A stretch of DNA of 64,000 nt, from NCBI GenBank assembly GCA_022711115.1, contig JAKLFP010000010.1, positions 14,330-78,329 on the forward strand, read 5' to 3'. The stretch's first letter is position 1; each line of letters begins with the position of its first letter. The notes under the pieces are model-generated. The model made no database searches and was not told the DNA's origin. It saw nothing but the letters and a program-made list of their open reading frames with translations. Below, piece after piece: positions 4,215 to 58,921 of this stretch. The translations under genes and the position numbers were made by a program. Origin of the DNA: Candidatus Omnitrophota bacterium. Lineage in GTDB: Bacteria; Omnitrophota; Omnitrophia; Omnitrophales; Aquincolibacteriaceae.

Positions 4215-5353
4215 AAAACCTCGTTATCCTCGGATCTTCGGGTTCAGTGGGAGAGAATGCTCTCCATGTTGTGCGGATTCACCCGGAACGTTTTTCTGTT
4301 AAGGCGCTGGCGGTCAAAAAGAACATCGAAAAACTCTACGAACAGGCCCGCGAATTCCATCCCAAGCTTGTTTGCATCTATGATCCTCAAAAAGCCAAAG
4401 AGGCCGCTTCCAGGTTCAGGAGGTTGGGCATTCGCGTCGTTTCCGGGGATGATGGCCTTTTGGAAGTCGCGACGCTTTCCGGAGTGCATGAAGTGATCTG
4501 CGCCATGGTGGGGGCGGTGGGGTTGAGGCCGATTTTCGCCGCGGTCCATGCGAAAAAAAATGTGGCAATAGCAAACAAAGAGCCTCTTGTCATGGCGGGG
4601 AAGCTGCTTTTGAGCGAAGCGAAAAAATGCGGTGTGGGGGTGCTTCCGATCGACAGCGAACATTCCGCGTTGTGGCAATGTCTTGAAAAACAGGATCCGG
4701 CTTTTGTTAAAAAACTTATCATCACATCTTCGGGCGGACCTTTCCGGAATCGCAAAGGGTCTTTGTCCGGGATCACGCCGTTGCAGGCGTTAAAACATCC
4801 GAAATGGAAAATGGGGCCGAAGATTACGATTGATTCTGCGACGCTCATGAACAAAGGGCTGGAAGTGATCGAGGCTTCGAATCTCTTTCATGTGCCCACG
4901 GAAAAGGTCGAAGTGGTAATCCATCCGGAAGCGATCGTGCATGCCTTAGTGGAGTTTGTGGATGGATCGCATTTTGCCCATCTCGGCGTGACGGATATGT
5001 GCCTTCCGATTCAGTATGCCATGAGCTATCCGGAGAGGCTGGTCAATCACTTGCCGCATCTGGATCTTGTGCGTCTGAAGGCGTTTCACTTTGAAAAGCC
5101 GGATCCGAAGCGTTTCCCGTGTCTTGAACTGGGTTACACCGCAAGCCGTATCGGCGGGACGATGCCGGCTGTGCTGAATGCGGCCAATGAGATTGCCGTG
5201 GAGGCTTTTTTAAACCGGCATATTGGATTTTTGGAAATCCCAAAGATCATTGAAAAAACCATGAGCGCACATCATTTAATCAAAACGCCAACACTTGCGG
5301 ATATTTTTGCGGCAGATGCCTGGGCCCGCGAAACCGCTGAGGAATTACAATGA
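4211..5353 (+). CDS. dxr: 1-deoxy-D-xylulose 5-phosphate reductoisomerase
   Basis: ILGSSGSVG NADPH-binding N-terminus and DXR-family core; 380 aa. Confidence 0.95.
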   Translation: MKNLVILGSSGSVGENALHVVRIHPERFSVKALAVKKNIEKLYEQAREFHPKLVCIYDPQKAKEAASRFRRLGIRVVSGDDGLLEVATLSGVHEVICAMVGAVGLRPIFAAVHAKKNVAIANKEPLVMAGKLLLSEAKKCGVGVLPIDSEHSALWQCLEKQDPAFVKKLIITSSGGPFRNRKGSLSGITPLQALKHPKWKMGPKITIDSATLMNKGLEVIEASNLFHVPTEKVEVVIHPEAIVHALVEFVDGSHFAHLGVTDMCLPIQYAMSYPERLVNHLPHLDLVRLKAFHFEKPDPKRFPCLELGYTASRIGGTMPAVLNAANEIAVEAFLNRHIGFLEIPKIIEKTMSAHHLIKTPTLADIFAADAWARETAEELQ

Positions 5354-9538: not shown

Positions 9539-11236
9539 TCAAGATTGTGGAAATTCCGCTGCTGCGATTGCTTTTTCAAAAAGACGCATAGCCTCTTTTT
9601 CTTGTCCTGCATCACGGCGAATATACCCGAGCAGAACATAAAAAAAAGGATTTTGGGGATCCCTTTGGATCGCATTTCTAAGCAACTGGGTAGCTGAGGA
9701 GGTTTGCCCTGTTTTTCTTAAAGAAATAGCCCAATCGGGAAGAAATGTTTTTGAATCGAGATGTTTGATTAACAACGCGGCAAGGGAAGCTGATTCTTGA
9801 TAAAAAAGTTTTTTTGTGTCGGTGTCTAATCGGGAGTAGCAATTGGTCATGTTGTTTAAAACGGCAAGATCGCCTAGTCCCAATGCGATCGCTTTATGAT
9901 AATGCATGAGAGCCAATCGATCATTTTTAATGCCTTCCCCGGCGTAAGCCTCTCCTAAAGCAACATGAGGCAGTATTTTTTCAGAGGATTCTTTAAGGTC
10001 ATTTCCCCATAACGCGAAAGGACTTCTCCAGAACTCATTTCTGGAATAAGTTAAAAAAGAAAAGACCAAAATGATCAATAAAGCAATCGCTAAAAAGCGT
10101 GTGGCAGAGCGGATGATGGCCCATAACGCGAATGATAAAAAAAGAGTGAATCCAAACATCGGGAGATAAAGACGGTGTTCAAAAATGACGTCGCGGATAG
10201 GAATAATCGAAGATTCAACGCTTAAGGTCAAAAAAAACCAGAGAATGCCAAAAGCGAGCAGCGGTTCTTTTTTAAAAAGAGCGATGGCGAATAAAAAAAT
10301 ACTTCCAAGAAGCAGCAAGGCCGACCACGTGTCCGGATCTCCGGGGAAAACGGAAGGGAGGTAACCGTGACTGACGCATTGGTGGATCGGTAGAAGAAGA
10401 AGTCGCAGATAGGTCCTGAGAACTCGGAATTGAGTTAAAAGATAATCCCAACGGGACATGTCCGTGTCTGCTTTTGGAAGGATATTCGTCATGGTTTCTG
10501 GATGAAAGAAGGGCAAGATAAATTTCCCGCTGAAAAAAATCGGGATGACCGGCAAAAGAACGGCAAAAGGCAACCAGCGGAAGAATTTTTTTGTGAGGGA
10601 TTCTTTTTGGGAAAGCGGGAAAAAACAAAAATCCGCAAGGAGAATCATAAAAGGAATTGTAAAACTGATTTCCTTGGTAAGCATGGCCAATCCAGTGAAG
10701 ACGAGAGAAAAGATGTAAAACCTTTTTTGTTCAAGTCTCGCTTTCAAGTACATCAGAAGGGCTGTGATGTAAAAGAGGGTTGCCAGTGTAGCTGTCCGTT
10801 GGACAATATAAGTAACCGCCTGGGTTTGAAGCGGGTGCACTGCAAAAAAGAGGGCCGTGATTAGTGAGAAGGCATTTTGCTGTGATGAAGGGAGACGGTC
10901 CTGCATGGCGGGTGTGCGGAGAATCATGCGTGTCGTTTCGAAGACCGCGAGTGAAGCAAGCAAATGGATCAACAAATTGATGAGATGATAGCTCCAAGTG
11001 TTTTCACTGGCGAAAGCATATTGCAAGGCGAAGCTAAAGGCTGTGATGAATCGGGCATGAGTGAAATCCCAGATTAATCCCAGGTTTAGCGGTGAATGTA
11101 CGATGGGATAATTGGTTAAGATGTAATGAAAGTCGTCCAAATGAAAAGGCACAATCAGTGTGTTGCTGTAAACAGCGATTCCGAAGAGAACGATGAGGAG
11201 GATAGCTGTTTGGAAGCGTATGATTTCTTTTTGCAT
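9539..11236 (-). CDS. TMTC-like polytopic membrane protein (PMT_2/DUF1736-type N-domain) with C-terminal TPR repeats
   Basis: About 10 predicted TM helices in the N-terminal 400 aa, followed by TPR-like repeats. Paralogous to the next gene. Confidence 0.6.
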   Translation of the reverse strand: MQKEIIRFQTAILLIVLFGIAVYSNTLIVPFHLDDFHYILTNYPIVHSPLNLGLIWDFTHARFITAFSFALQYAFASENTWSYHLINLLIHLLASLAVFETTRMILRTPAMQDRLPSSQQNAFSLITALFFAVHPLQTQAVTYIVQRTATLATLFYITALLMYLKARLEQKRFYIFSLVFTGLAMLTKEISFTIPFMILLADFCFFPLSQKESLTKKFFRWLPFAVLLPVIPIFFSGKFILPFFHPETMTNILPKADTDMSRWDYLLTQFRVLRTYLRLLLLPIHQCVSHGYLPSVFPGDPDTWSALLLLGSIFLFAIALFKKEPLLAFGILWFFLTLSVESSIIPIRDVIFEHRLYLPMFGFTLFLSFALWAIIRSATRFLAIALLIILVFSFLTYSRNEFWRSPFALWGNDLKESSEKILPHVALGEAYAGEGIKNDRLALMHYHKAIALGLGDLAVLNNMTNCYSRLDTDTKKLFYQESASLAALLIKHLDSKTFLPDWAISLRKTGQTSSATQLLRNAIQRDPQNPFFYVLLGYIRRDAGQEKEAMRLFEKAIAAAEFPQS

Positions 11237-11253
11237 AAAGATCCTACAATTAT

Positions 11254-13182
11254 CTAACGCGGGTTTTCTTTATTTGTCTGAATTAATCGGTATAGTCTCT
11301 GCGCTATTTCTTTTTGCCCTATAACTTCCATTTTTTTAATTTGTTCTTTTACCAAATGGATATCGCCTTGCTGTAAATAAATTTCTCCCAATGCTAACAC
11401 GGGGTCCGGATAAGTCGGGTCCAAAGCGCATGATTTTTTTAAAAACCGGACGGCTTCTTCCGGTTTTCCGTTATTTTTAAAAATGATCCCAAGCTGGCAA
11501 TAAGCCGGGGCATAATAGGGATTTATTCTCATTACTTTTATAAACTGCGTCACTGAATTTTTAATGTCACCTTTTTTTTGGTAGGCCACACCCAAATTGT
11601 AATGTCCGATTGCAAAATACGGCTTGATTTTTATAGCTTTTTGCAAGTTCGCAATGGCACGGTCGACGTCATTTTTTTCGCTATAAAGAACTGATAAATT
11701 ATTTAAAACATCGGCTTGCTGCGGATCAATTTCAATAGCTTTGTTGTAGAGCATTAAGGCTTTTTCTTTATCACCTTCAGTGTTGTATAAAATGCCTAAG
11801 TTGTAATAACCCCGGGGATCTAAAGGATCTTTTTCTATTATTTTCTCATAGTATTCTCTGGCTTTTTCGAAATCCTTTTTTTCCAAATAAGCCCTGGGTA
11901 AATTAATATAGCCCCTTTTTTTATCGGGTGATTTTTGCATCACATCTTCCCAGAGCGAAACTTCCGTTCTCCAAACATAGTTTCGGGCATAAGTGAGCGA
12001 GGAAAAGGTGAGAATCATCATGGCGGCAATGGCAACGAAAAGCGGGGTCTTTAGAAAGAAAAATAGTGTGGTGGCTAGAAAAATCGCACACCCGGCAAGG
12101 GGAAGATACATGCGATGTTCGGCGATGACGTCATTAAGCGGAATGATAGTTGATTCCACGCTTAAGGTCAGGAAAAACCAAAATAGGGTGAATGCAACCA
12201 ATCGGTTTTTCTTAATCATCCAGATTCCCATGAGGAACAATCCTGATAGTAATAAAAAACATAATAAAGTTTTTGGTTCCAGCAAAGAATGGGCAATCGG
12301 ATAGTCGTAATCAACATTTTGATGAATGGGGAATAGCAATAGCCTTAGATACGTGCATAAGACGTTAAATTCCGTTAACAAATATTCCAGGCGTGAAAAT
12401 ACATTTTTTTGAGCTAACGGGTTCGGAAAAAATTGATGGGGTGACGTGTACAAGGTGTTCCCGCTGCTCATAAGGGTCAAGCAGGGTATGATGATTAACA
12501 GCAATAGAAAAGGGAATAATTTTGTAAAAATCTTTCTTTTATTACCCGAAAATCCGAAAAATAAACATTCAATGAGTCCCAGCATCAAAGGTAAGGTGAA
12601 TGCGATCTCCTTGCAGAACATGGCCAAAACAGCCATGGCAAAGGCTAAATAAAAATGCACTTTTTTTCCATCTAGCCTTTCTTTTAAATAAAAAATGATC
12701 GTTCCAAGATAAAAAAAAGTCGCCAGAGAAGTTGAGCGTTGAAAGATGTAGGTGACAGCCTGGGTTTGAAGCGGATGTGAGAGAAATATCAAAGCGCTGA
12801 AAACAGACAAATAATGTGAAGCGTTCTGAGAATATTTTCCAAGCATTTGGGGGGTCGACAGAAGCAATAAAACCAAAAAATAAACCAAAAACGAGTTTGA
12901 CATATGTATGGCAAAATTTAAGAGATGGAAACCGAAAACTTGGTGCAGACTTATGCAGTTGTTGAGTGCGAACGATAGATGACAGAGGAACCTTGTCTTC
13001 TCATTAAAGTTCCATATGGCCGGGATATTCGAAAGGTTATAAACGGTCCAGTTTTTTAAAATGCGTGGGATGGCATCAAATTGAAAAGGAACATTCCAAG
13101 AGTTGGAGTAGATAAGAGCGCCTAATCCTAGAAGAAGCGCCAGGATCATGTAGTGCCTTATTTTTTCTGAAAATTCTTTCAT
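11254..13182 (-). CDS. TMTC-like polytopic membrane protein with C-terminal TPR repeats (paralog)
   Basis: Same architecture as 9539-11236. The C-terminal about 230 aa has clear TPR repeats (YYNLGILYNTEGDKEKAL..., HYNLGVAYQKKGD...). Separated from its paralog by 17 bp on the same strand. Confidence 0.65.
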   Translation of the reverse strand: MKEFSEKIRHYMILALLLGLGALIYSNSWNVPFQFDAIPRILKNWTVYNLSNIPAIWNFNEKTRFLCHLSFALNNCISLHQVFGFHLLNFAIHMSNSFLVYFLVLLLLSTPQMLGKYSQNASHYLSVFSALIFLSHPLQTQAVTYIFQRSTSLATFFYLGTIIFYLKERLDGKKVHFYLAFAMAVLAMFCKEIAFTLPLMLGLIECLFFGFSGNKRKIFTKLFPFLLLLIIIPCLTLMSSGNTLYTSPHQFFPNPLAQKNVFSRLEYLLTEFNVLCTYLRLLLFPIHQNVDYDYPIAHSLLEPKTLLCFLLLSGLFLMGIWMIKKNRLVAFTLFWFFLTLSVESTIIPLNDVIAEHRMYLPLAGCAIFLATTLFFFLKTPLFVAIAAMMILTFSSLTYARNYVWRTEVSLWEDVMQKSPDKKRGYINLPRAYLEKKDFEKAREYYEKIIEKDPLDPRGYYNLGILYNTEGDKEKALMLYNKAIEIDPQQADVLNNLSVLYSEKNDVDRAIANLQKAIKIKPYFAIGHYNLGVAYQKKGDIKNSVTQFIKVMRINPYYAPAYCQLGIIFKNNGKPEEAVRFLKKSCALDPTYPDPVLALGEIYLQQGDIHLVKEQIKKMEVIGQKEIAQRLYRLIQTNKENPR

Positions 13183-43691: not shown

Positions 43692-46157
43692 ATGACAAAC
43701 ATCATGCATGTTTTTGAACTCAACTTCTATGCCGTGCCCCTTGTCGTGGTCGGGCTTCTGATGTTTCTGACCGGGCTTTACATTTTTCTCCACAACAAAC
43801 ACTCCCGCGCGAACTTCTCCTTTTTCCTGATCTGCCTTTGCGGTCTTTTTTGGTTTTTCGGAAATGCCGCGACCTATTCGGCGCGCACGCCGGAAGCCGC
43901 GCTCGCTTTTTACAGGGCGGTCACGTTTTTGGGCGTGGCCCTGATCGCGCCCTGTGTTTATTATTTTTCCGCAAGCTGGTTGAATCTTTTTGATAAGCAA
44001 AAGGCCGGCGTGCGGACCGCGCTTTTCTTGGGGGCTGCTTTTTATATTGTAGGGCTTTTTTCTCCAAGAAGTTTCCCCGGCGTCCGGCATTATTTTTGGG
44101 GCTACTATCCGGTCTATGGGCCGCTGAATTACTATTTTCTCGGCTATTTTTATCTGGTGCTGGCCAATGCGTTCTATAATTTTTTCAGGGCCTATTTCAA
44201 AGAACCGCGGGGTGTTCGCCGTACCCAGATCCGATTGATCACGCTCAGCTTTGTGGTGGCCTTTTTCAGCTCGCTTGATTATCTGCCGAAGCTGCTCTCT
44301 TATCCGGTTTATCCGCTGGGTTTTCTCCTCGTCTTTTTGTGGATCCTGATCGTGGCCTACGCCATCATCAAATACAGGGCCATGGATATCGAAACCGTGG
44401 TCCACAAGACCTTGATGTGGCTGGCCACCTCGGCGGTGGCGGTGGTGCCGTTCCTGGCAGTGATCTACGGGTTTGAAAAGATCCGGAATCCTTCCTCGAA
44501 CTTGCTTTCGACACTTTATTATTTTACGGTTTCGATCGCTTTTTATTTTTATTTCCGGGCCATCCAGCCGCGGCTGGACCATTGGTTCCAGCGCCGGCGC
44601 ACGAACCTGCTGGCGATTCTTGAGCAATTCTCCAAGGAGCTCGTGCATTTGAAGAACCTGCGCGACCTTCTGCAAAACTTCGCCCGCATGCTCCGGAACA
44701 AACTTTTTGTCCGCAGGCTTTCGGTCTACCTGTTGGATGAGAAAAAAGGGGAGTTTGTTCCCGCGATCGCCAAGGGGCTGCGCAGCTTAAAACCCTTTCC
44801 CAAGGGGCATCCCTTTTTTTCGTGGCTCGAGAAAACGGATGCCGTGGTGGTTGGGGAACTTGTGCTGGCGGATCCCTCCGTCGAAACGTTCAAAAAAGAA
44901 TTAGAAGATTATTTTCAGGCAACCCAATCCTTTTTAAGCGTGCCCTTTGTGCTCGGCGGGAAATTGATCGCCCTAGCGAACCTCGGCAAAAAAGCAAATC
45001 TGCGCCGGTATGGTTTTGAAGAAGTCCAATTTTTCGCCAAACTGAAAGCGCCGCTTACCATTGCCTTTTCGAATTCCATGCAGTTTGAGAATATTTCCGA
45101 ACTTTACAACCAGGTCCGCAAGATGAGCGAAGAACTGAAGCAATGGAACATCGAGCTGGAACAGCGCGTGGAAGATCGGACGCGCGAGTTGGTGAAAACC
45201 CAGGACCAGCTAGTGCAGGCCGAAAAACTCGCGACGCTCGGCACGCTTGCCGGCGGCGTGGCGCATGAGATCAACAATCCCTTGACGGCAGTTCTGACCA
45301 ACGCGCAGATCCTCAAAATGACGGCGGACGAAGATGTCCGGGAATCGCTGGACCTGATCGAGGAGGGCGCGAAGCGGTGCCAGCAGATCGTCCAAAAGCT
45401 CATGAAATACGCGCGTAAGACCGCGGAAGAGGCGCCGCACAAGGAAGTGGATCTGAATGAAGTGGTGCAAGGGACGTGCGCGCTTCTGGGGTTTCAATTT
45501 CAGCAAGAGAATATCGAGATTGAGACCAAGCTGGGCCAGATCCGCCGCGTGATGGGAATCGGCAATGAGCTGGAGCAGGTGCTTACGAACCTTCTTGTGA
45601 ACGCCCGGGATGCCATTAAGTCCAATCCTCAATCAAAAGATTTAAAGGTTAATGGGACTAGTCCTGGCAACCTTCAGTCAGAAGAAGATAGATGCCAGGG
45701 CAAATCCCATTCTCCATCAAAAGATTTAAAGGTTAATGGGACTAGTCCTGGCAACCTTCAGTCAGAAGAAGATAGATGCCAGGGCAAATCCCATTCTCCA
45801 TCAAAAGATTTAAAGGTTAATGGGACTAGCCCTGGCAACCTTCAGTCAGAAGAAGATAGATGCCAGGGCAAGTCTGCAAGAAGCCAAGGCCGGATTGTGG
45901 TCGAAACCCGCGGGAAGGGAGCCATGGTGGAACTTGTGGTCACGGACAACGGCATCGGTATTCCCAAAGGAAACCTCAAAAAGATCTTCGATCCCTTTTT
46001 TACGACCAAAGAGGTCGGTTCCGGTACTGGGTTGGGGCTTGCGGTCAGTTACGGCATCCTGAAGCGGCATAATGCTTCCGTGAGCGTTGATTCTTCGCCC
46101 GGCAAAGGTACTACCTTTGTGCTTTGCTTTCCCCGAAAGCAACAAGGTGAATCATGA
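43692..46157 (+). CDS. sensor histidine kinase (7TM N-terminal sensor, GAF-like, HisKA, HATPase_c) carrying an in-frame 3x28-aa repeat insertion
   Basis: 7 TM helices N-terminally; H-box [13 protein letters not shown]; N-box [10 protein letters not shown]; G-boxes DNGIGIP and GSGTGLGL. Three copies of [28 protein letters not shown] lie between the N box and G1 box. Confidence 0.85.
45633..45884 (+). repeat. 3 x 84-bp near-perfect in-frame tandem repeat inside the kinase ATP-binding domain
   Basis: Units start at about 45633, 45717 and 45801. A single T/C difference (actagtcct vs actagccct) separates copy 3 from copies 1-2. Confidence 0.9.
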
Positions 46158-46199
46158 AATGTCCTAGTGTTCAATTGGGATTTCATGTCCAATTCGCCA

Positions 46200-46255
46200 T
46201 TAAAAATTCAAAGGTTAATTGGACTAGCCCTGGTGACCTTCAGTTAGATGAAAAA
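46200..46255 (+). repeat. diverged partial copy of the 84-bp repeat unit in the intergenic region
   Basis: caaaggttaattggactagccctggtgaccttcagttagatg aligns to the intragenic unit aaaggttaatgggactagtcctggcaaccttcagtcagaag at about 80 percent identity. Confidence 0.6.
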
Positions 46256-46319
46256 AAACAGGGGCATAACACTACCTTCACGCTCCGGTTTCCTGCGGCT
46301 CATTCATCCACCCAAAAGT

Positions 46320-47807
46320 ATGAATCCGTATAATTTTTCCATTTTGTGCTTTGGTTTTTGTTCCCTCCTCTTGGGACTTTTTGTCTGGCTCAAACGGCAG
46401 GATCGTGTCGGCCAATTGTATTTTGTGTTGTCTTTTTTTTATGCTGGTTGGGCGCTGCCATTTTCTATAAAAATCAGTGATAATATTTCCTATGCTGCGG
46501 CGTTATACGCAGCACGCATGGCGAATTGTTCCGCGGCATTTATCCCAACTGTTTGGCTTCATTTTTGTTTGGTTTATACCAAAAGAGATGAAACCCATAA
46601 AAAAATACTTAAACTTTTTTACGCAATACCGCTGCTCATTCTTGCTGTTTCTTTTACACCGTGGTTTGTCCCGGGGCTCAGACCTATTCTCAGTTTTAGA
46701 CACTATGCAACCCCGGGTATTTTTTATTATTTGATGACATTGAATTATTTTATAGTTATTCCGCTGGGCTTTAACCAGTTATTTGACAAGATGAAAGAGG
46801 TTTCAAGAGAAGAAAGGGAACAACTTTTAGGACTTTTTTTCTCGGCCTTTATTGGCTATTTGGGAGGCGCCTTAACTTTTTTGCCGATCTATGGCATTTC
46901 ATTCCCTCAAGAAGGTATGTTTCTGTTGCCGATTTATCCCTTTGCTCTGACGTACTTTATGATTAAGCAGAAGATCTTCGACATCGAGGAGTTGGCCCAG
47001 GCGGCTCATCGGGACAAGTTAACAGCGATCGGGGTTTTGGCGGCGAGCATCAATCATGAGATCAAAAATCCGCTTTTTATTATCAAGGGACTCGCGGAGA
47101 ATTGTCTGGAGCGGCAAAAGGAAGGTGTTTTTTCCAATAAAGAAAAAGCCCTGGAGAGCGCCAACGACGCGATGAAAAGGAGCGTCGAGCAAGCGGACCG
47201 GGCGATGGATATCATCCGTAGGTTGTCGCTTTTTGCCAAGGCCGGGATCGACAGTGAGATCAAATTCGAGTTTGTGAAGATCGCGGAAGTGCTTGAAAAT
47301 ATTTTGCCGCTGATCCGTTATGAACTAGCAGCGAAAAATATCGTACTGACCCGTGACATTCCGCCCAATATTCCCGAAGTCCGCGCGGACCGGCGTTATC
47401 TTGAGGAGATTCTTTTCAACCTGCTAGTGAATGCCTGCCAGGCTGTCAGGGAAACCGGACGGGAAGGGGAGATCAAAGTGACCGCGGCCGTCATTGCGAG
47501 GGAACGAAGCGACCGAAGCAATCTCCCAATTCCGGACCTTAATAAAACGGGATCGCTGCGGCCCAAAAATGGCCTCGTGATGACAACTCCTGACAAGGTC
47601 CTTATCACGATCCAGGACAACGGCCCCGGGATCCCTGAAGATAAAATCAAAGACGTTTTCCGCCCCTTTTACACCACCAAAGCCGAGGGCACCGGTCTAG
47701 GTCTTTACATCACCAAACAGCTTGTTGAAAAAATCGGTGGACGGATATCTGTTGAGTCCCAGCAAGGCATTGGCACGACTTTTAAAGTTATCCTGAAGGC
47801 AGCCTGA
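46320..47807 (+). CDS. sensor histidine kinase (7TM N-terminal sensor, HisKA, HATPase_c), paralog
   Basis: Start set at MNPYNFSILCFGF by analogy with the next paralog. H-box LAASINHEIKNPL; G-boxes DNGPGIP and GTGLGLYI. Confidence 0.85.
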   Translation: MNPYNFSILCFGFCSLLLGLFVWLKRQDRVGQLYFVLSFFYAGWALPFSIKISDNISYAAALYAARMANCSAAFIPTVWLHFCLVYTKRDETHKKILKLFYAIPLLILAVSFTPWFVPGLRPILSFRHYATPGIFYYLMTLNYFIVIPLGFNQLFDKMKEVSREEREQLLGLFFSAFIGYLGGALTFLPIYGISFPQEGMFLLPIYPFALTYFMIKQKIFDIEELAQAAHRDKLTAIGVLAASINHEIKNPLFIIKGLAENCLERQKEGVFSNKEKALESANDAMKRSVEQADRAMDIIRRLSLFAKAGIDSEIKFEFVKIAEVLENILPLIRYELAAKNIVLTRDIPPNIPEVRADRRYLEEILFNLLVNACQAVRETGREGEIKVTAAVIARERSDRSNLPIPDLNKTGSLRPKNGLVMTTPDKVLITIQDNGPGIPEDKIKDVFRPFYTTKAEGTGLGLYITKQLVEKIGGRISVESQQGIGTTFKVILKAA

Positions 47808-47810
47808 GCC

Positions 47811-49187
47811 ATGAATCCGTATAACTTCTCAGTCCTGTGTTTCGGTTTTTGCAGTTTGCTTCTCGGAATTTTCGTTTGGCTTAAGCGGCAAGATTATGTT
47901 GGGCGACTTTATTTTGCTTTATCCTTTTTTTATGCTGGTTGGGCAATTTTTATATCGATTAATCTTAATAATGACATTTCGCCGGACCTCGGTCTTCTTA
48001 TGGGGCGATTAGGGAATGGCTTTGCTATTTTTATTTCCATTATTTGGTATCATTTTGTTTTGGTTTATACAGGATTTATTGAAAAACATTACAAGTTGGT
48101 GAAGTTTTTTTACATCATCTCGATACTAACATTTTGTTTTGTGTTTTCACCTTGGTTTATTCCAAAGACAGCAACTATAGTTGGTTTTAAGCATTACTCG
48201 CAAGCTGGACCAATCCATTATTTTTTTTCATTCTTATTTTTCATTCTAGTCACACTAAGTTTTATTGAATTGCACCGGAAAATAAAGAACTCTTTCGGAT
48301 ATGAAAGAGCGCAATTCAAAGGACTTTTTTGGACAGCCCTTTTGGGGTATCTCGGAGGGAGTCCGGCTTTTCTTCCGATTTATGGGATTCCCATGCCCCA
48401 ATATTGTCTCTTTTTAATGCCCCTTTATCCATTCATGTTGGCTTACTTCATGACCAAACAAAAACTCTTCGATGTGGCGGAATTGGCCCAAGCGGCGCAT
48501 AGGGATAAACTTTCGGCAATTGGTTTATTGGCAGCCAGTATAAATCACGAGGTCAAAAATCCATTATTTGTCATTAAAGGCATGACAGAAACACAGTTGG
48601 AACGTTTGCATGACCCGACGCAGTCAACAGAAAAGTTAAGAGAAATGCTAGAAAAAACCCTTCAGCAGGCGGATCGGGCGCTTGGAATTATTCGAAGCTT
48701 TTCTGAGTATGCAAAAAGGCAAAGCTCGCGAACATTCGATAAACAAATGCTCGATATTCGAGAAGTTATTGACAATATTATTCCGTTTGTGCGCAGCGAG
48801 TTGGCTTTGGACTCTATTCACCTAGAGTTGAATATACCGGCAAAAACCATGATCTGTGCGGACCAGCAATCCATGGAAGAAATCTTTCTGAATTTAATCG
48901 TGAATGCCTGCCAGGCGATAAAAAGCACTAATAAAACGGGTGAGATTGAGATTTCATCAGAGAAAGAAGATCCGTGGATCAGGATTGCAGTGCGAGATAC
49001 CGGGCCGGGATTGTCACAGGATCAGCTTTCAAGGATCTTTGAGCCATTTTACACAACAAAAGTATCAGGGACAGGCCTTGGACTTTATGTGGTCAAGCAG
49101 CTTGTCGAGAAAAATCAAGGCAGGATTGAGGTAGTTTCAAAGATCGGCGTTGGGACCACCTTTACCCTTATCTTTTCGCAACACTAG
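47811..49187 (+). CDS. sensor histidine kinase (7TM N-terminal sensor, HisKA, HATPase_c), tandem paralog
   Basis: MNPYNFSVLCFGFCSLLLGIFVWLKRQ is almost identical to the N-terminus of the preceding gene. H-box LAASINHEVKNPL. Noticeably lower GC than the upstream paralog. Confidence 0.85.
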   Translation: MNPYNFSVLCFGFCSLLLGIFVWLKRQDYVGRLYFALSFFYAGWAIFISINLNNDISPDLGLLMGRLGNGFAIFISIIWYHFVLVYTGFIEKHYKLVKFFYIISILTFCFVFSPWFIPKTATIVGFKHYSQAGPIHYFFSFLFFILVTLSFIELHRKIKNSFGYERAQFKGLFWTALLGYLGGSPAFLPIYGIPMPQYCLFLMPLYPFMLAYFMTKQKLFDVAELAQAAHRDKLSAIGLLAASINHEVKNPLFVIKGMTETQLERLHDPTQSTEKLREMLEKTLQQADRALGIIRSFSEYAKRQSSRTFDKQMLDIREVIDNIIPFVRSELALDSIHLELNIPAKTMICADQQSMEEIFLNLIVNACQAIKSTNKTGEIEISSEKEDPWIRIAVRDTGPGLSQDQLSRIFEPFYTTKVSGTGLGLYVVKQLVEKNQGRIEVVSKIGVGTTFTLIFSQH

Positions 49188-53541: not shown

Positions 53542-53577
53542 CTTTTGATTTATAACGAAACTCAGGAAAGCATCTCA

Positions 53578-55875
53578 ATGGCATTCTATATCCTGATAAC
53601 GGGACTTATTACCGCATCATATGCAGGCCTGGGCCTTTTCGTTTTTTTAAATGATCGAAGGAAATTTCTTTTTCGAATTTTTTTGTTATTTTGTTTGTCC
53701 GTCGCCTTATGGGCGTTTGGATATTTTATAACTCTCTTATCTCATATTACTTATCCAGTCGCAATTTTATCTAGCCGTATTTCGCATGCCATTGGGGCTT
53801 TTATTCCGATTACCTTTTTGCACTTTGTCTTGTCGTTTCTTCGCATTGATACTAATCATCGCCGACTTTTGCAAAACGGTTATATTGTATCCACAATTAT
53901 GTTCGGCATTGCACTAACACCATATGTGGTAAGCGATGTGGTGCAAAAGATGGATATTCGATTTTATCCCGAAAAAGGGTTATTTTATCCAATATATGCG
54001 GCGCTTTATTTGGTTTATGCGCTTGGATTTGCTCAGTTTTATCTATTTAAATCTTTTTTGAGCGCTACCGGAATTAATAAAAAGCGACTTCTTTTCTTTA
54101 TAGTTTCAACATTTGTAGGTTTTATCGGTGGTGTTTCGCTTTTCTTGCTAATATTTAATATTCCTGTTCCTCCTTATGCTAGTTCACTTATTGTAATTTG
54201 GCCATTTGCAATGGCGTATACGATTATTAAATATCGCGAATTTAATATAGAAGTTATTATTAAAAGGACATTGGTTTTTACTGGAGTTTTTGGTTCAATC
54301 ATTGGCATTGTTGCTATTGTGACAACACTTGCTCAAAATTATTTGGGGCAATATCTTGGTATAGGGCTGTTGGCGCGACAGATTTTTAGTGTTTTGATTG
54401 CCATCTTGCTTTTTGATCCGATTCGAAAACTGCTGATTAATCTCACGGACAAATACCTTTTTCAGAAAAAGTACGACTACCACAAGCTGCTCAAGGACGC
54501 GTCGCGGGGGATGTCGAACATCGAGAGCCTGGAGCGGTTGCTGGGTCTGGTCGTGCACTTCGTGACCATGAAGATGCGCGTGAAGAACGCGGCGGTGTTG
54601 ATGCGGGAAGGGGGCATGGATCAGTTTCATCTGGTGTATCAGCGCGGGTACGATAAAAAACACGTTGCCCTGACGCTCTACAGTAATGACCCGCTGATCC
54701 ATTACCTGGAGAATCATCAGGAGGCCGTGGACATCGAAAGGGTGAAAGAACAAGTCGAATCCGCCTCCCACCAGCGCGACAGAAGCGAGGTCGCGTATGA
54801 TTATGAAGCGATTCGCGAACGGATGATCCAGTTGCAGGCCAGCTGTTGCGTGCCGAGTTTTTTGGGCAAGGAGCTCAAGAATGTTCTTCTGCTCGGCGAA
54901 AAAAAATCCGGCGAATATTATTCCAACGAAGACCTGAATCTGCTTTACACGCTGGCGCAGGAATCCGCGATTGCGATCGAGAATGCCTGGCTTTATGATG
55001 AGGCCAAGAAAAAATCCCGAGAACTCGAACACATCAATGAGCAATTGGAACATTCCAAAACGCTTTTGATGAAAGCCTTGCAAGAAGCCGAAGGCGCGAA
55101 CAAACAGCTTCAGGACACACAGGCACAGTTGATCCACGAGCAGAAAATGGCGACCCTGGGCCGTCTGGCCGCGTCCGTGGGGCATGAAGTCAACAACCCA
55201 CTGACCATTCTGTCCATGAACGTGTCGCGCGTGATCCTCAAGTACCGGAAAAACCCGGATATGAAAGTGATCGAGATCCTGGATGTTTTTGACAAGATGG
55301 AAAAAAATATCGAGCGCATCAAAGCCGTGGTGAACACACTGACCGGGCTCCTCAAGAAATCCGAAAAAGGAAAATTCGAACCGCTGTCGCTCAAGCTGAT
55401 CCTGGAAGAAACCCTGCCGCTCGTGCAGTTCCAGACCTATCTGGACAATCTTTCGGGCACGGAAGTGGATTTCAACGTGCCGGGCAATATCCCGCTTATT
55501 CGCGGCGATCTGGAGCGTTTGCAGGAGGTATTTCTCAATCTTTTCATCAATGCCTATCATGCCATGGCCGGGAAGCGGCACCGCAAGATCGCGGTGGCTG
55601 CCGAGATCGACCCGCAGGACTCAAAGATGGTGGCGATCCATTTCAGGGACAACGGTTCGGGCATGACCGAAGATGTCATCAAAAAGGTCTTCAATTACGG
55701 TTTCACCACCAAACCGCTAGGCAAAGGATCAGGGCTCGGCCTGTATATGTGCAAGTACATCATTGAGCTTCACGGCGGGACGATTGTGGTGCAAAGCAAA
55801 GTCGGGGAGGGGACGACGTTCACGCTGACGCTGCCGATCTACGAGGAGTCTCCGGCGCTGAAGGCGCGAAGCTAG
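53578..55875 (+). CDS. sensor histidine kinase (7TM N-terminal sensor, GAF-like, HisKA, HATPase_c); compositionally chimeric
   Basis: ATG at 53578 with an AGGAAAG RBS; the ORF-track start at 53545 is a TTG. H-box LAASVGHEVNNPL; G-boxes DNGSGM and GSGLGLYM. GC jumps from about 35 to about 60 percent near nt 54450. Confidence 0.85.
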   Translation: MAFYILITGLITASYAGLGLFVFLNDRRKFLFRIFLLFCLSVALWAFGYFITLLSHITYPVAILSSRISHAIGAFIPITFLHFVLSFLRIDTNHRRLLQNGYIVSTIMFGIALTPYVVSDVVQKMDIRFYPEKGLFYPIYAALYLVYALGFAQFYLFKSFLSATGINKKRLLFFIVSTFVGFIGGVSLFLLIFNIPVPPYASSLIVIWPFAMAYTIIKYREFNIEVIIKRTLVFTGVFGSIIGIVAIVTTLAQNYLGQYLGIGLLARQIFSVLIAILLFDPIRKLLINLTDKYLFQKKYDYHKLLKDASRGMSNIESLERLLGLVVHFVTMKMRVKNAAVLMREGGMDQFHLVYQRGYDKKHVALTLYSNDPLIHYLENHQEAVDIERVKEQVESASHQRDRSEVAYDYEAIRERMIQLQASCCVPSFLGKELKNVLLLGEKKSGEYYSNEDLNLLYTLAQESAIAIENAWLYDEAKKKSRELEHINEQLEHSKTLLMKALQEAEGANKQLQDTQAQLIHEQKMATLGRLAASVGHEVNNPLTILSMNVSRVILKYRKNPDMKVIEILDVFDKMEKNIERIKAVVNTLTGLLKKSEKGKFEPLSLKLILEETLPLVQFQTYLDNLSGTEVDFNVPGNIPLIRGDLERLQEVFLNLFINAYHAMAGKRHRKIAVAAEIDPQDSKMVAIHFRDNGSGMTEDVIKKVFNYGFTTKPLGKGSGLGLYMCKYIIELHGGTIVVQSKVGEGTTFTLTLPIYEESPALKARS

Positions 55876-56055
55876 ACTTCAGACCACGGACGACAGACTA
55901 TAGACTGCAGACCCTAGATGGCAGATTTCAGAGCTGGAGGAAGTTGTCATTGCGAACGTTCCCCGCAATTCGTTGGACGAATCCGTCCGAGAAATTTGGC
56001 AGAAAGTGAAGCAATCTCGCAATATTCAGGCTTAAAGAATTAATAAAAAATAAAA

Positions 56056-56096
56056 AAGAGATTGCCATGCCATCAAAACGAGGCTCGCAATGACAG
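56056..56096 (+). repeat. hairpin repeat family copy A (GAGATTGCCAYGYC...CTCGCAATGACA)
   Basis: aagagattgccatgccatcaaaacgaggctcgcaatgacag, 9 nt upstream of the GIY-YIG start codon. Confidence 0.6.
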
Positions 56097-56104
56097 AGTA
56101 ACCT

Positions 56105-56386
56105 ATGTCAAAAAAAGGTTATGTTTATATTTTATCGAACTCTTCCAATACAGTTTTATATACCGGGGTAACATCAGATCTTTGGGCGCGAGTGGGTGAG
56201 CATAAACAAAAGTTAGTGAAGGGATTCACAAAACGGTATAATGTTACTAAGCTTGTCTGGTTTGAAGAATTTGGATCGATTCATGAGGCAATTGCGTCAG
56301 AAAAGAAAATAAAAGCAGGATCCAGAGCTAAAAAAATAAAATTGATTAAAACTCTGAATCCTGAATTTAGAGATTTAGCATTATAG
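56105..56386 (+). CDS. small GIY-YIG nuclease-domain protein (YhbQ/UPF0213-like)
   Basis: KGYVYIL...LYTGVT...FTKRYNVTKLVWFEEF is a GIY-YIG core; 93 aa. Confidence 0.8.
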   Translation: MSKKGYVYILSNSSNTVLYTGVTSDLWARVGEHKQKLVKGFTKRYNVTKLVWFEEFGSIHEAIASEKKIKAGSRAKKIKLIKTLNPEFRDLAL

Positions 56387-56390
56387 TTTT

Positions 56391-56433
56391 AAGAGATTGC
56401 CACGCCCCTCAAAACGGGGCTCGCAATGACAAA
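56391..56433 (+). repeat. hairpin repeat family copy B
   Basis: aagagattgccacgcccctcaaaacggggctcgcaatgacaaa, 5 nt after the GIY-YIG stop. Confidence 0.6.
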
Positions 56434-56836: not shown

Positions 56837-56929
56837 ACTATAGGCCATCACTATAGACTGGAGACGGCAGACTGAGGCATGTCATCGCGAGCGAAGCGTG
56901 GCGATCTCCTGGCTATCGAAGTCGGTAAA

Positions 56930-57208
56930 ATGAAAAAAGGTTATGTCTATATTTTAGCAACTCCCTCCAACAAAGTTCTTTATACGGGCGTTACCGCAGA
57001 TCTTTGGGATAGGGTGACTCAACATAAAGACAAAACGGTCGAAGGGTTCACAAAACGTTACAACGTTACCAAATTGGTTTATTTTGAAGAATTCACATCC
57101 ATCATGGATGCGATCTCAGCGGAGAAAAAAATAAAAGCTGGATCCAGAGCTAAAAAAATAGAGTTGATTAAAACATTGAATCCTGCATTTAAGGATCTAG
57201 CGCAATAA
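56930..57208 (+). CDS. small GIY-YIG nuclease-domain protein (YhbQ/UPF0213-like), paralog
   Basis: MKKGYVYILATPSNKVLYTGVTADLW...FTKRYNVTKLVYFEEF. Start moved to the internal ATG to match its paralog. Confidence 0.8.
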   Translation: MKKGYVYILATPSNKVLYTGVTADLWDRVTQHKDKTVEGFTKRYNVTKLVYFEEFTSIMDAISAEKKIKAGSRAKKIELIKTLNPAFKDLAQ

Positions 57209-57210
57209 TT

Positions 57211-57253
57211 AGGAGATTGCCACGCCCTAAAAGACAGGGCTCGCAATGACAAA
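57211..57253 (+). repeat. hairpin repeat family copy C
   Basis: aggagattgccacgccctaaaagacagggctcgcaatgacaaa, immediately after the GIY-YIG stop. Confidence 0.6.
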
Positions 57254-57285
57254 AAGGGAAAAGCTTCAGACGGAGGTTTTCAATT

Positions 57286-57822
57286 ATGAATTTTATTCAA
57301 ACAGAAATTCCGGGTGTGATCCTGATCGAGCCCAAGGTCTTTCATGACCCGCGCGGCTTTTTTTATGAAAGTTACCGCAGAAAACTTTTCGCGGCCAACG
57401 GGATCAAGGACCATTTTGTCCAGGACAACATCAGCTCGTCGGCCAAAGGAGTTTTGCGCGGCCTTCATTATCAGATTGCGCCACGGGCTCAGGCGAAGCT
57501 GATGCGTGTGATCAAAGGGTCTGTTTACGATGTTGTTGTGGATATCCGGCCACGGTCCAAAACTTTCGGCAAATTTGTCGCGGTCACGCTTTCTGCGGAA
57601 AACAGAAAGTTACTTTATATCCCCAAAGGTTTCGCGCACGGTTTTTGCGTTCTGGAAGACGGCACGGAATTCATGTACAAGGTTTCGGACTATTATTCAC
57701 CCGAACACGAGCGAGGCATCCTCTGGAGTGATCCGGGTCTGGCGATCCCTTGGCCGAAGTTGGATCGCGCATTCATCCTTTCCGAGAAAGACAAAAAATA
57801 CCCTACCCTCAGCAGCTTATAG
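57286..57822 (+). CDS. rfbC: dTDP-4-dehydrorhamnose 3,5-epimerase
   Basis: Cupin RmlC motifs (FHDPRGFFYESY, RGLHYQ, DGTEFMYKVSDYY); 178 aa. Confidence 0.92.
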   Translation: MNFIQTEIPGVILIEPKVFHDPRGFFYESYRRKLFAANGIKDHFVQDNISSSAKGVLRGLHYQIAPRAQAKLMRVIKGSVYDVVVDIRPRSKTFGKFVAVTLSAENRKLLYIPKGFAHGFCVLEDGTEFMYKVSDYYSPEHERGILWSDPGLAIPWPKLDRAFILSEKDKKYPTLSSL

Positions 57823-57898
57823 CCGATAGCTCATGGACAATAGCTAATAGCTCATAGCTTTTAGCTATAAGCTAGAGTCTAGGGTCTCAAGTCTAGAG

Positions 57899-58802: not shown

Positions 58803-58921
58803 TTTTTAGACCACAGACGGCAGACCACAGACAAGAGGCCCAACATCTCAAAAGAGCTTTCAGACTGCAGTCATCAGTCTGTAGTCTGATGGCAATAGTA
58901 TTTATGGTAAAATAGATTCAT

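Follow-up and report, generated by a model that had tools for sequence, protein, structure and literature searches.

Triplicated 84-bp units in an Omnitrophota sensor kinase gene are probably copies of a small mobile element that resides in frame inside unrelated genes

We analysed a stretch of 64,000 nucleotides from Candidatus Omnitrophota bacterium (GenBank assembly GCA_022711115.1, contig JAKLFP010000010.1, positions 14,330 to 78,329; hereafter, the window), in which the gene of a sensor histidine kinase, kinase 1, carries three head-to-tail copies of an 84-bp unit inside the sequence for its ATP-binding domain. Kinase 1 matches the Pfam domains HisKA_7TM, GAF, HisKA (6.7e-15) and HATPase_c (1.1e-23). 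A protein identical to it, HOW59302.1, is encoded by a Candidatus Omnitrophota metagenome-assembled genome (MAG), and the 90% cluster of HOW59302.1 also has members of 793, 789, 788 and 817 amino acids. The array and its host gene are laid out as follows.

43692-46157, plus strand: kinase 1, a sensor histidine kinase of 821 amino acids including the array (open reading frame (ORF), translation, Pfam).
45618-45620, plus strand: left flanking direct repeat AAG (the Lys codon of ...DAIK), repeated at the right end of the array at 45870-45872; the empty ortholog L053 reads GCG ATT AAG/GTG, and filled sites have the triplet on both sides.
45621-45704, plus strand: copy 1 (unit A), an 81-nt element plus AAA, with the 5′ end TCCAATCCTCA and T at position 42 (repeat searches, unit alignment).
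45705-45788, plus strand: copy 2, a recombinant unit with the unit-B 5′ end TCCCATTCTCC and the unit-A T42, missing from two-copy assemblies (unit alignment).
45789-45872, plus strand: copy 3 (unit B), with a consensus-like 5′ end, C42 (a Watson-Crick pair in hairpin 2, see below) and a terminal AAG (unit alignment, fold).

Repeat searches found the three in-frame copies that an initial annotation of this DNA had described. Tandem Repeats Finder reported 45621-45871 (period 84, 3.0 copies, 97% matches, score 474) as the sole strong array of the window, and a separate repeat search returned the same copies at 84-bp spacing, plus a fourth, diverged copy at 46202-46252. The 84-nt pattern itself occurs exactly twice, against an expectation of zero from 100 shuffles, and the longest exact run at a shift of 84 inside the array is 114 bp. 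The units had been placed at 45633, 45717 and 45801, and taken as identical save for one T/C change. The true ends of the element, however, set the starts at 45621, 45705 and 45789, and copies 1 and 2 differ at unit positions 4, 7 and 11, copies 2 and 3 at positions 42 (T/C) and 84 (A/G). Position 42 lies in the stem of hairpin 2, where copy 2 has a T·G and copy 3 a C-G pair. The third peptide repeat terminates in KSARS rather than KSHSP.

The array lies in frame between the end of the N-box helix and DNGIGIP (the G1 box) of HATPase_c, and the kinase is intact around it, as had been proposed: the HATPase_c and HisKA matches, the fold and the N, G1, F and G2 boxes (GSGTGLGLA among the motifs) are kept, and the predicted local distance difference test (pLDDT) score is >90 on both flanks. 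The insert, at which the alignment to solved kinases splits exactly, replaces a turn of two residues that links the N-box helix to the next β-strand and precedes G1 (in ZraS, 9jfj, the helix stops at residue 152 and the strand begins at residue 155). In the AlphaFold2 model of the fragment comprising the dimerization and histidine phosphotransfer (DHp) and catalytic and ATP-binding (CA) domains, the insert lies between helix 123-142 and strand 232-241; pLDDT is 89-96 in the parts flanking it, and residues 158-227 are modelled as coil with pLDDT <50. The 84 additional residues are thus predicted to form a disordered surface-loop excursion, which is apparently tolerated rather than functional. 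The insert had also been thought to alter the ATP lid. The lid of histidine kinases, however, lies between G1/F and G2, and the insert is upstream of G1; a low-confidence segment at about residues 262-278 of the fragment is consistent with a lid downstream of the insert.

The unit is not confined to kinase 1. We scanned genomes and metagenome contigs with degenerate exact-core patterns, and searched the recovered loci with a profile (nhmmer) that is free of the exact-core requirement. In agreement with the earlier suggestion of an independent repeat element, the core scans recovered the unit from 2 loci in genomes and 42 in metagenomes, within more than 12 different host genes, and all named records among them belong to Omnitrophota. 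The two genome loci, in other Omnitrophota MAGs, are the linker of FtsK (L001) and the first codons of AroE, directly 3′ of the leuA stop (L002). Hosts confirmed with Pfam are KsgA, phosphofructokinase (PFK), a CMD-family protein, heptosyltransferases, GltX, UbiD, a DEAD/DSHCT helicase, TrpE/PabB, XerD and UvrA. The insert is found between Pfam domains in GltX, TrpE/PabB and the helicase, and near the N terminus in XerD, PFK, CMD, UbiD and AroE. Copies in FtsK, AroE, UvrA, GltX, KsgA, XerD and other hosts are 73-91% identical to copy 2 of the window.

The way in which these copies sit in their hosts is uniform. Thirty-seven of the 42 metagenome copies (~88%) are in long open frames, all on the ORF strand and all in one phase, and the extra members recovered by the profile are again mostly in phase 0 within long ORFs. 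The clearly intergenic copies (L007, L009, L041) contain stops, while two others (L011, L021) lie in another frame in short open stretches. In most copies examined, copy 1 of the window among them, just the +0 frame of the six is stop-free; in the family consensus a reverse-strand frame is open as well, and no gene-internal copy was seen in that orientation. The peptide encoded by the open frame is hydrophilic, and a phmmer search with 31 residues of it gave three matches: a false positive (P0130), a kinase of another genome (L018, see below) and one new helicase host. A query of 57 residues, covering two units, gave no candidate words. Scans of viral contigs with the cores of this element (type 1) and of the sibling type described below gave no match. 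The element likewise has no match in Rfam, with only sub-threshold microRNA-hairpin noise at 21-27 bits against gathering scores of 57-150; the hits of the whole window at the gathering threshold are two tRNAs. A literature search of incomplete coverage returned no paper linking Omnitrophota to such elements.

Orthologs of kinase 1, which are syntenic and have a common polyketide-cyclase/shikimate dehydrogenase gene upstream, show both empty and filled states of the loop. The loop is empty in six of them (P0003, P0007, P0011, P0013, P0014, P0020) and holds one unit in four (P0002, P0004, P0005, P0006). One ortholog (P0031/L051) has a 66-bp microhomology deletion between AAGGTT and AAAGTG that leaves a 10-residue remnant, and P0008 has a short footprint. 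In P0018/L049 an independent insertion is found 7 codons downstream, with GGC AAG at both flanks, and P0009, P0010, P0017 and P0023 carry other inserts altogether in the same loop. At the DNA level, filled sites (L050, L049 and the window) differ from empty ones (L052, L053) by exactly 84 bp per unit.

These comparisons define the element as 81 bp with a 3-bp flanking duplication, a net 84 bp, so that every insertion adds exactly 28 codons. Core-aligned copies share ~81 nt, with the consensus YCCMATTCTCCATCAAAAGAAT-AAAGGTTAATKGGRCTAGYCCTGGCAACCTT-N6-AAAGAAAATRGAKGCCAGGRC. The triplet on both sides is mostly AAG ((C)AAG), but ATG/ATG and CTG/CTG are found in independent loci, i.e. the flanks covary. 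We therefore set aside a mechanism of the IS200/IS605 type, as insertion of that type makes no target duplication and the triplets here covary with the target. Over a longer stretch, the left flanks have the consensus RRRGRCAAG, which is similar to the right end of the element itself.

Folded as a single strand, the element forms two adjacent hairpins (z-scores of -3.1 to -4.5). Hairpin 1 joins the left end, YCCMATT, to an AATKGGR that lies immediately left of the centre; hairpin 2 joins a GYCCTGGC immediately right of the centre to the right end, GCCAGGRC. The ends of the element thus pair with internal segments, not with each other. Over 38 copies, 89.7% of cells are paired; sliding the 3′ partners lowers this to 18-48%. 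One covarying pair is C-G in 21 copies and A-U in 15, and the covariation score is above those of all 500 shuffles, with the caveats that two subfamilies could explain much of this signal and that the structure put to the test came from a member of the family itself. We also considered one central palindrome (AAGGTT..AACCTT around GGACTAGTCC), but dropped it in favour of the two-hairpin fold, which has the covariation support. Long terminal inverted repeats were not found; by eye, inversion is limited to the terminal TCC...GGA, with a weak match at 7 of 11 positions. The description of the unit as 'minisatellite or MITE-like' (MITE, miniature inverted-repeat transposable element) therefore holds as regards a dispersed repeat, but not as regards a canonical MITE, which would have terminal inverted repeats of ~10-40 bp. 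The two-hairpin design makes the array pseudo-palindromic, and this accounts for the 'inverted fragment' that had been noted beside a diverged copy in the downstream spacer: the match is of 7-8 nt and reflects the internal complementarity of the element (TCCCATT/AATGGGA), and no tool gave an independent inverted copy. On the minus strand, the unit junctions (45661-45740 and 45745-45824) give a weak profile match (E=5e-4).

The conservation of the element is at the level of nucleotides, not of peptide, because entropy reaches its minimum at third codon positions (0.40; first positions have 0.75 and second positions 0.48). Given this distribution of variability, we set aside an explanation of the insert as a protein module.

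We consider it probable that the 84-bp unit belongs to an apparently undescribed family of small mobile elements of Omnitrophota, found in frame in linkers, termini and loops of many unrelated essential or housekeeping genes, and that it was secondarily amplified in a disordered loop of the kinase. The mobile-element interpretation itself is strongly supported by the copies in unrelated Omnitrophota genes together with the empty and filled sites in kinase orthologs. The family would consist of miniature non-coding elements that are frame-neutral and resemble the Rickettsia palindromic elements (RPEs). Its bias towards one frame and the coding strand may arise because selection removes other insertions, or because a target preference (GRC AAG as codons) sets the phase. 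One copy would have entered the turn between N-box and strand in an ancestor, related species keeping a single orthologous copy and others the empty site, and a second unit would then have arisen beside the first.

Several points weigh against this reading. The left flank often matches the right end of the element beyond 3 bp, up to 10 bp in L028, which fits a fixed 3-bp staggered cut poorly; the mechanism may instead be homology-guided. Because no autonomous partner or transposase turned up in the loci examined (no scan was aimed at long elements sharing the termini), we infer mobility from the distribution, the flanking duplications and the empty and filled sites. The insert peptide is predicted from the open frame. 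Unit B could have originated by duplication followed by divergence of the edge, or by a second insertion followed by conversion. Finally, all copy numbers come from short-read assemblies, so that two copies may reflect a collapsed repeat, and more than three may in fact be present.

Copy number differs among closely related contigs. A SPAdes NODE contig (L046, ERZ761563) matches the window at 100% identity across 8.45 kb and carries three units. Two others, L045 (JGI 3300009838) and L047 (MEGAHIT k141, ERZ27257456), have two units and differ from the window solely inside the array over ~8.3 kb. The two-unit form is A (5′ TCCAATCCTCA, T42) followed by B (5′ TCCCATTCTCC, C42), and the extra middle unit of the three-unit form has the 5′ end of B and the T42 of A. 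In its sequence, copy 2 is precisely what an unequal exchange of B on one chromatid with A on the other would yield if the crossover fell between unit positions 11 and 42; an exchange in the opposite direction would take three units back to two. Unequal crossover or replication slippage between A and B could in this way have given the A-(B/A recombinant)-B order of the window strain, and the array would expand and contract to give the one, two and three units of near-identical strains. The three positions that set copy 1 apart from copy 2 are clustered, all of them inside the first 11 nt of the 84-nt unit. The 5′ end of B equals the family consensus, and both A and B carry a signature of the kinase site, GAAGATAGATGC. 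Such clustering fits an older array whose interior was homogenized by exchange while its outer edge diverged.

Two further contigs carry other forms of the array. L048 shows 99.3% identity to the window in the part preceding the array, and has one unit with a nested sibling element; from 45664 onward its identity drops to ~86% and stays low through the two following kinase genes (kinases 2 and 3), which places a recombination breakpoint at or near the repeat. L054 has a full unit followed by the first 19 nt of a second tandem unit, and tandem states at the kinase site are thus old or recurrent.

It is quite possible, though on balance we lean the other way, that the difference between two and three units, and perhaps the number three itself, is an effect of assembly in one clonal population of fixed copy number. 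The two-unit contigs differ from L046 and the window solely in the array over ~8.3 kb, and MEGAHIT stands against SPAdes. Moreover, a 114-bp exact repeat forms a cycle at k of up to ~113, the shortest traversal of which is A(T)-B(C), exactly the two-unit form. However, the three-unit path needs the 5′ end of B joined to T42, 31 nt apart, and these k-mers are impossible in a two-unit genome; at least three units are therefore real in at least one data set. The related strain L048 truly differs (one copy plus the nested element), and the second copy of L054 was truncated independently. The initial claim that the expansion is recent or copy number variable accordingly remains plausible: it has on its side the occurrence of one, two and three units in near-identical contigs, and against it that the two-copy contig also equals the de Bruijn collapse of the 114-bp repeat.

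Tandem units might also arise with no recombination at all, by repeated self-targeted insertion, as the right end with its flank, CCAGGRC-AAG, recreates the target GRCAAG. The likeness of the left-flank consensus RRRGRCAAG to the right end of the element would suit such a mechanism, as would the 5′ ends of A and B, which are those of two subfamilies (CCAAT and CCCAT), and their reversed order in L054 (CCCAT, then CCAAT). The confinement of the copy 1/copy 2 differences to the first 11 of 84 nt is also unlikely for simple divergence. We nevertheless regard self-targeting as unlikely: A and B share GAAGATAGATGC, which is missing from most other family members, copy 2 is a precise A/B chimera that insertion cannot make, and there is no other head-to-tail array among the 42 metagenome loci.

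The region downstream of the array contains another member of the family and two paralogous kinase genes.

46154-46333, plus strand: a 59-codon ORF in the spacer between kinases 1 and 2; its ATG shares the sequence ATGA with the kinase 1 stop, and at its end it runs into the kinase 2 start; annotated by gene callers (in L045).
46188-46268, plus strand: the spacer copy, a diverged full-length member of the family with the usual open frame, flanked by CATG/CATA (end-to-end family alignment).
46269-46333, plus strand: a remnant of the original syntenic kinase 1 3′ end (..NTTFTLRFPAAHSS..), abutting the kinase 2 start; it can be aligned to the 3′ ends of kinase 1 in L050 and L048.
46320-47807, plus strand: kinase 2, a paralog, whose HATPase_c match is 30 residues longer than the profile; an element with terminal inverted repeats (TIR-type) lies inside it.
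47490-47584: the unrelated miniature element of kinase 2, in frame in the loop between N-box and G1, with 12-nt imperfect inverted ends GTCATTGCGAGG/CCTCGTGATGAC; it reads VIARERSDRSNL..GSLRPKNGLVMT.
47811-49187, plus strand: kinase 3, a paralog with an empty loop (Pfam, comparison with L018/P0131).

The spacer of 162 bp had been reported to contain a partial copy outside any gene. The copy is real (86% identity over 51 nt, nhmmer E=1.5e-13, 70-75% identity overall, about 72%), but it is full-length, and it lies inside the 59-codon ORF, for which Pfam gave no match. Its end-to-end alignment and its own flanks indicate an independent, older member of the family rather than a fragment of the array, and we take it to reflect an independent older insertion. 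A reading of this stretch as a relic of a kinase CA domain ('gccattaa' resembling the N-box end) was rejected, since in the family alignment it is the left end of the element. Kinase sequence is found solely to the right of the spacer copy, where ACTACCTTCACGCTCCGGTTTCCT... (encoding TTFTLRFP) aligns with the 3′ ends of ortholog kinase 1 genes; the 35 nt to the left have no assignment. In L050, L051, L052 and L048 the kinase 1 3′ end directly meets or overlaps the kinase 2 ATG. The present 3′ end of kinase 1 therefore appears to have been brought in by rearrangement or allelic replacement, consistent with the break of identity in L048.

The same turn has been hit in other kinases: in kinase 2 by the unrelated TIR-type element, and in a kinase of another genome (L018/P0131), closely similar to kinase 3 and probably its ortholog, by the 84-bp element. 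The sequence encoding the N-box (GCC ATT AAG; CAG GCC ATG) resembles the preferred target of the element, and this similarity, together with the tolerance of the loop, would explain the recurrent insertion.

An alternative, close to the initial suggestion of a contingency or phase-variation-like switch, is that the array is a contingency-type length switch, in which copy number tunes kinase output under selection. The occurrence of one, two and three units among near-identical strains or assemblies could be viewed in this way, as could the repeated hits on one loop in three paralogs and in orthologs. The unit, however, is a multiple of three, and changes in copy number cannot switch the kinase gene off by frameshift. 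The insert is outside the ATP lid and predicted to be disordered, its peptide shows no constraint at the amino-acid level, the same element is found in many housekeeping genes where switching is implausible, and the recurrent hits are explained by the target similarity (GCC ATT AAG, CAG GCC ATG) and loop tolerance. A length switch is thus very unlikely, and a regulatory role of the insert has no support.

More improbable still is that the insert is left untranslated because ribosomes bypass it, as in T4 gene 60 and the mitochondrial byp elements, so that the kinase is unaffected. Identical flanking triplets, strong local hairpins and a peptide without amino-acid-level constraint are all compatible with bypass. 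Yet bypass needs no open frame, and about 37 of the 42 copies, though 10-30% diverged, have kept theirs open, with stops in the clearly intergenic ones; moreover, no stop codon follows the take-off codon, and the gap of 84-252 nt is far above known bypass distances (~50 nt in T4 gene 60). That a variable kinase loop was simply duplicated in one lineage with no mobile element involved, the spacer copy being a piece of a duplicated kinase, can practically be dismissed: although some orthologs have a homologous single loop at the same site and a kinase 3′-end remnant follows the spacer copy, the element occurs with flanking duplications in FtsK, AroE, UvrA, GltX, KsgA, XerD and others, and other orthologs have clean empty sites, with one insertion at a different codon.

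The sibling element of L048 is itself 81 nt long (TCCCAATTCC..CAATTTCC..GGAAATCGGGGCAAT..GTCAGGA), is inserted at the central CTAG of the unit with TAG/TAG flanks, and adds another 28 in-frame codons. Elements of the sibling type (TCCCAAT..CAATTTCC..GGAAATTGGGGCAAT..GTCAGGA, with a duplication of TAG or TGG) were located at these positions.

L048, 4459-4539: sibling element, with target-site duplication TAG at 4456-4458 and 4540-4542.
L003, about 1587-1670, and L042, about 6148-6062 (minus strand): sibling-type element.

The type-1 copies of aroE, ksgA, pfk, uvrA and pabB hold the sibling type close to their right end, at ..AATAG or ..AATGG, where it is flanked by TAG/TAG or TGG/TGG. Hairpin 2 of the sibling shows a compensatory change relative to type 1 (TGGC/GCCA to TGAC/GTCA).

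Some type-1 copies also contain, near their centre, a GC-rich hairpin of 21 nt, CCTGCCTGYCGGWAGGCAGG (L003, about 2556-2576; L017, about 1829-1849), which lengthens the frame by 7 codons (LPAGRQG or LPVGQAG) and may represent a third kind of nested element, a very small one. The UvrA gene of L017 (an open stretch of ~1107 amino acids) has taken at least four element insertions, doubly nested ones included, and its frame is still open.

A broader interpretation, which we put forward tentatively as a possibility we would not bet on, is that these elements form an Omnitrophota superfamily of frame-neutral mobile elements that live inside the coding sequences of gene-dense genomes, with target choice setting phase and orientation and with a right end that seeds arrays. 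Members would be 81 nt long with a 3-nt duplication, two hairpins would bring the ends together, and siblings and the 21-nt mini-insert would nest within them. A GRC-AAG target recognized as codons would ensure that a stop-free frame for a disordered peptide is read, and the right end, regenerating the target, would seed tandem arrays. Insertion might proceed by a hairpin- or homology-guided single-strand mechanism that has not yet been described.

The closest known parallel is provided by the RPEs (Ogata et al. 2000, Science 290:347; 2002, Genome Res 12:808), selfish repeats found in frame inside unrelated genes (PMC10969869). Both are short, non-autonomous dispersed repeats that lie in frame in many unrelated, often essential, genes, add a peptide at fold-compatible positions and form hairpins. 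The Omnitrophota element is shorter (81+3 bp against about 105-150 bp) and belongs to a different phylum; homology is not expected. The share of intragenic copies in a single frame is ~88% of those sampled here, against roughly half for RPEs (PMC10969869). The Omnitrophota element also has two side-by-side hairpins instead of one long palindrome and a clear 3-bp flanking duplication, and differs in its sibling nesting and tandem array.

The MIRUs (mycobacterial interspersed repetitive units) of Mycobacterium, attributed to Supply et al. 1997 (Mol Microbiol 26:991), are reportedly dispersed units of 40-100 bp that form head-to-tail arrays whose copy number differs between strains. They are said to have been first found in the operon of a two-component system, with spacer copies holding small ORFs that overlap the neighbouring stop and start. 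The unit studied here resembles these MIRU-VNTR loci (VNTR, variable number tandem repeat) in being a dispersed unit in a tandem array, and the 46154-46333 ORF overlaps the kinase 1 stop and the kinase 2 start likewise. MIRUs, however, are intergenic, whereas the Omnitrophota array is intragenic and in frame; no sequence similarity is expected, and one tandem locus was seen. Intragenic VNTRs and contingency loci of surface or regulatory proteins are similar in that their tandem repeats are in frame and gain or lose copies through slippage or unequal recombination, and differ in that the unit here comes from a mobile element and resides in a cytoplasmic catalytic domain.

Canonical MITEs (Correia, ERIC, Nezha, Chunjie; PMC10969869, PMC3184786) are comparable to the element in several respects: they are small, cannot encode a transposase, are dispersed in multiple copies with duplicated target sites, leave orthologous sites either empty or filled, and at times form in-frame fusions. 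The Omnitrophota element departs from them in lacking long terminal inverted repeats and in its strict single orientation relative to host genes, and a related insertion sequence did not turn up, no scan having been aimed at one. With repetitive extragenic palindromes (REPs), their mosaic arrangements (BIMEs, bacterial interspersed mosaic elements) and elements derived from IS200/IS605 it has in common the hairpin architecture, a conserved left flank and possibly single-strand DNA chemistry. REPs are 20-40 bp, extragenic and tagged by GTAG/CGTC (PMC3733652); the Omnitrophota element is neither of that size nor extragenic nor GTAG-tagged, and its flanking triplets covary, unlike those expected of IS200/IS605.

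That selfish repeats settle in frame within essential genes has been regarded as almost peculiar to Rickettsia (PMC10969869). An unrelated Omnitrophota family doing likewise suggests a general strategy of mobile DNA in compact genomes, and the superfamily, if it is one, would represent the RPE phenomenon a second time, independently and in a more extreme form. The main interest of the finding would lie beyond the kinase, in an apparently undescribed, frame-neutral, hairpin-structured superfamily of elements in coding sequences across Omnitrophota. The family is a tractable set for studying how elements choose phase. It would explain many odd loop insertions and length variants of MAG proteins, apparent variable regions of sensor kinases included, that could otherwise be over-interpreted as functional. 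It also poses a practical problem, as assemblers collapse or expand such arrays differently.

Four paralogous histidine kinases with a seven-transmembrane (7TM) receptor are encoded in the window, three in tandem (43692-49187) and one at 53545-55875; no response regulator was noticed beside the four, no systematic search having been made. A pair of 68-nt direct repeats (10770-10837 and 12710-12777, 75% identity) lies 1.9 kb apart and has no Rfam match at the gathering threshold.

Further downstream are two small GIY-YIG nuclease genes (93 and 109 amino acids, 73% DNA identity), each bordered by AGAGATTGCCAYGCC..CAAAACGRGGCTCGCAATGACA, with a GTCATTGCGA end upstream. The pieces of this region are as follows.

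55946-56095: GIY-YIG region piece.
56105-56386: GIY-YIG region piece.
56391-56431: GIY-YIG region piece.
56879-57208: GIY-YIG region piece.
57209-57262: GIY-YIG region piece.

The border motif is the terminal motif of the kinase 2 element, suggesting a GIY-YIG-associated mobile family. Degenerate tracts with a period of 7 nt (AGACTAC, AGCTAAT, CTAGAGT, AGACCAC; 55873-55918, 57814-57898, 58808-58886) recur around the GIY-YIG genes and around dTDP-sugar epimerase genes.

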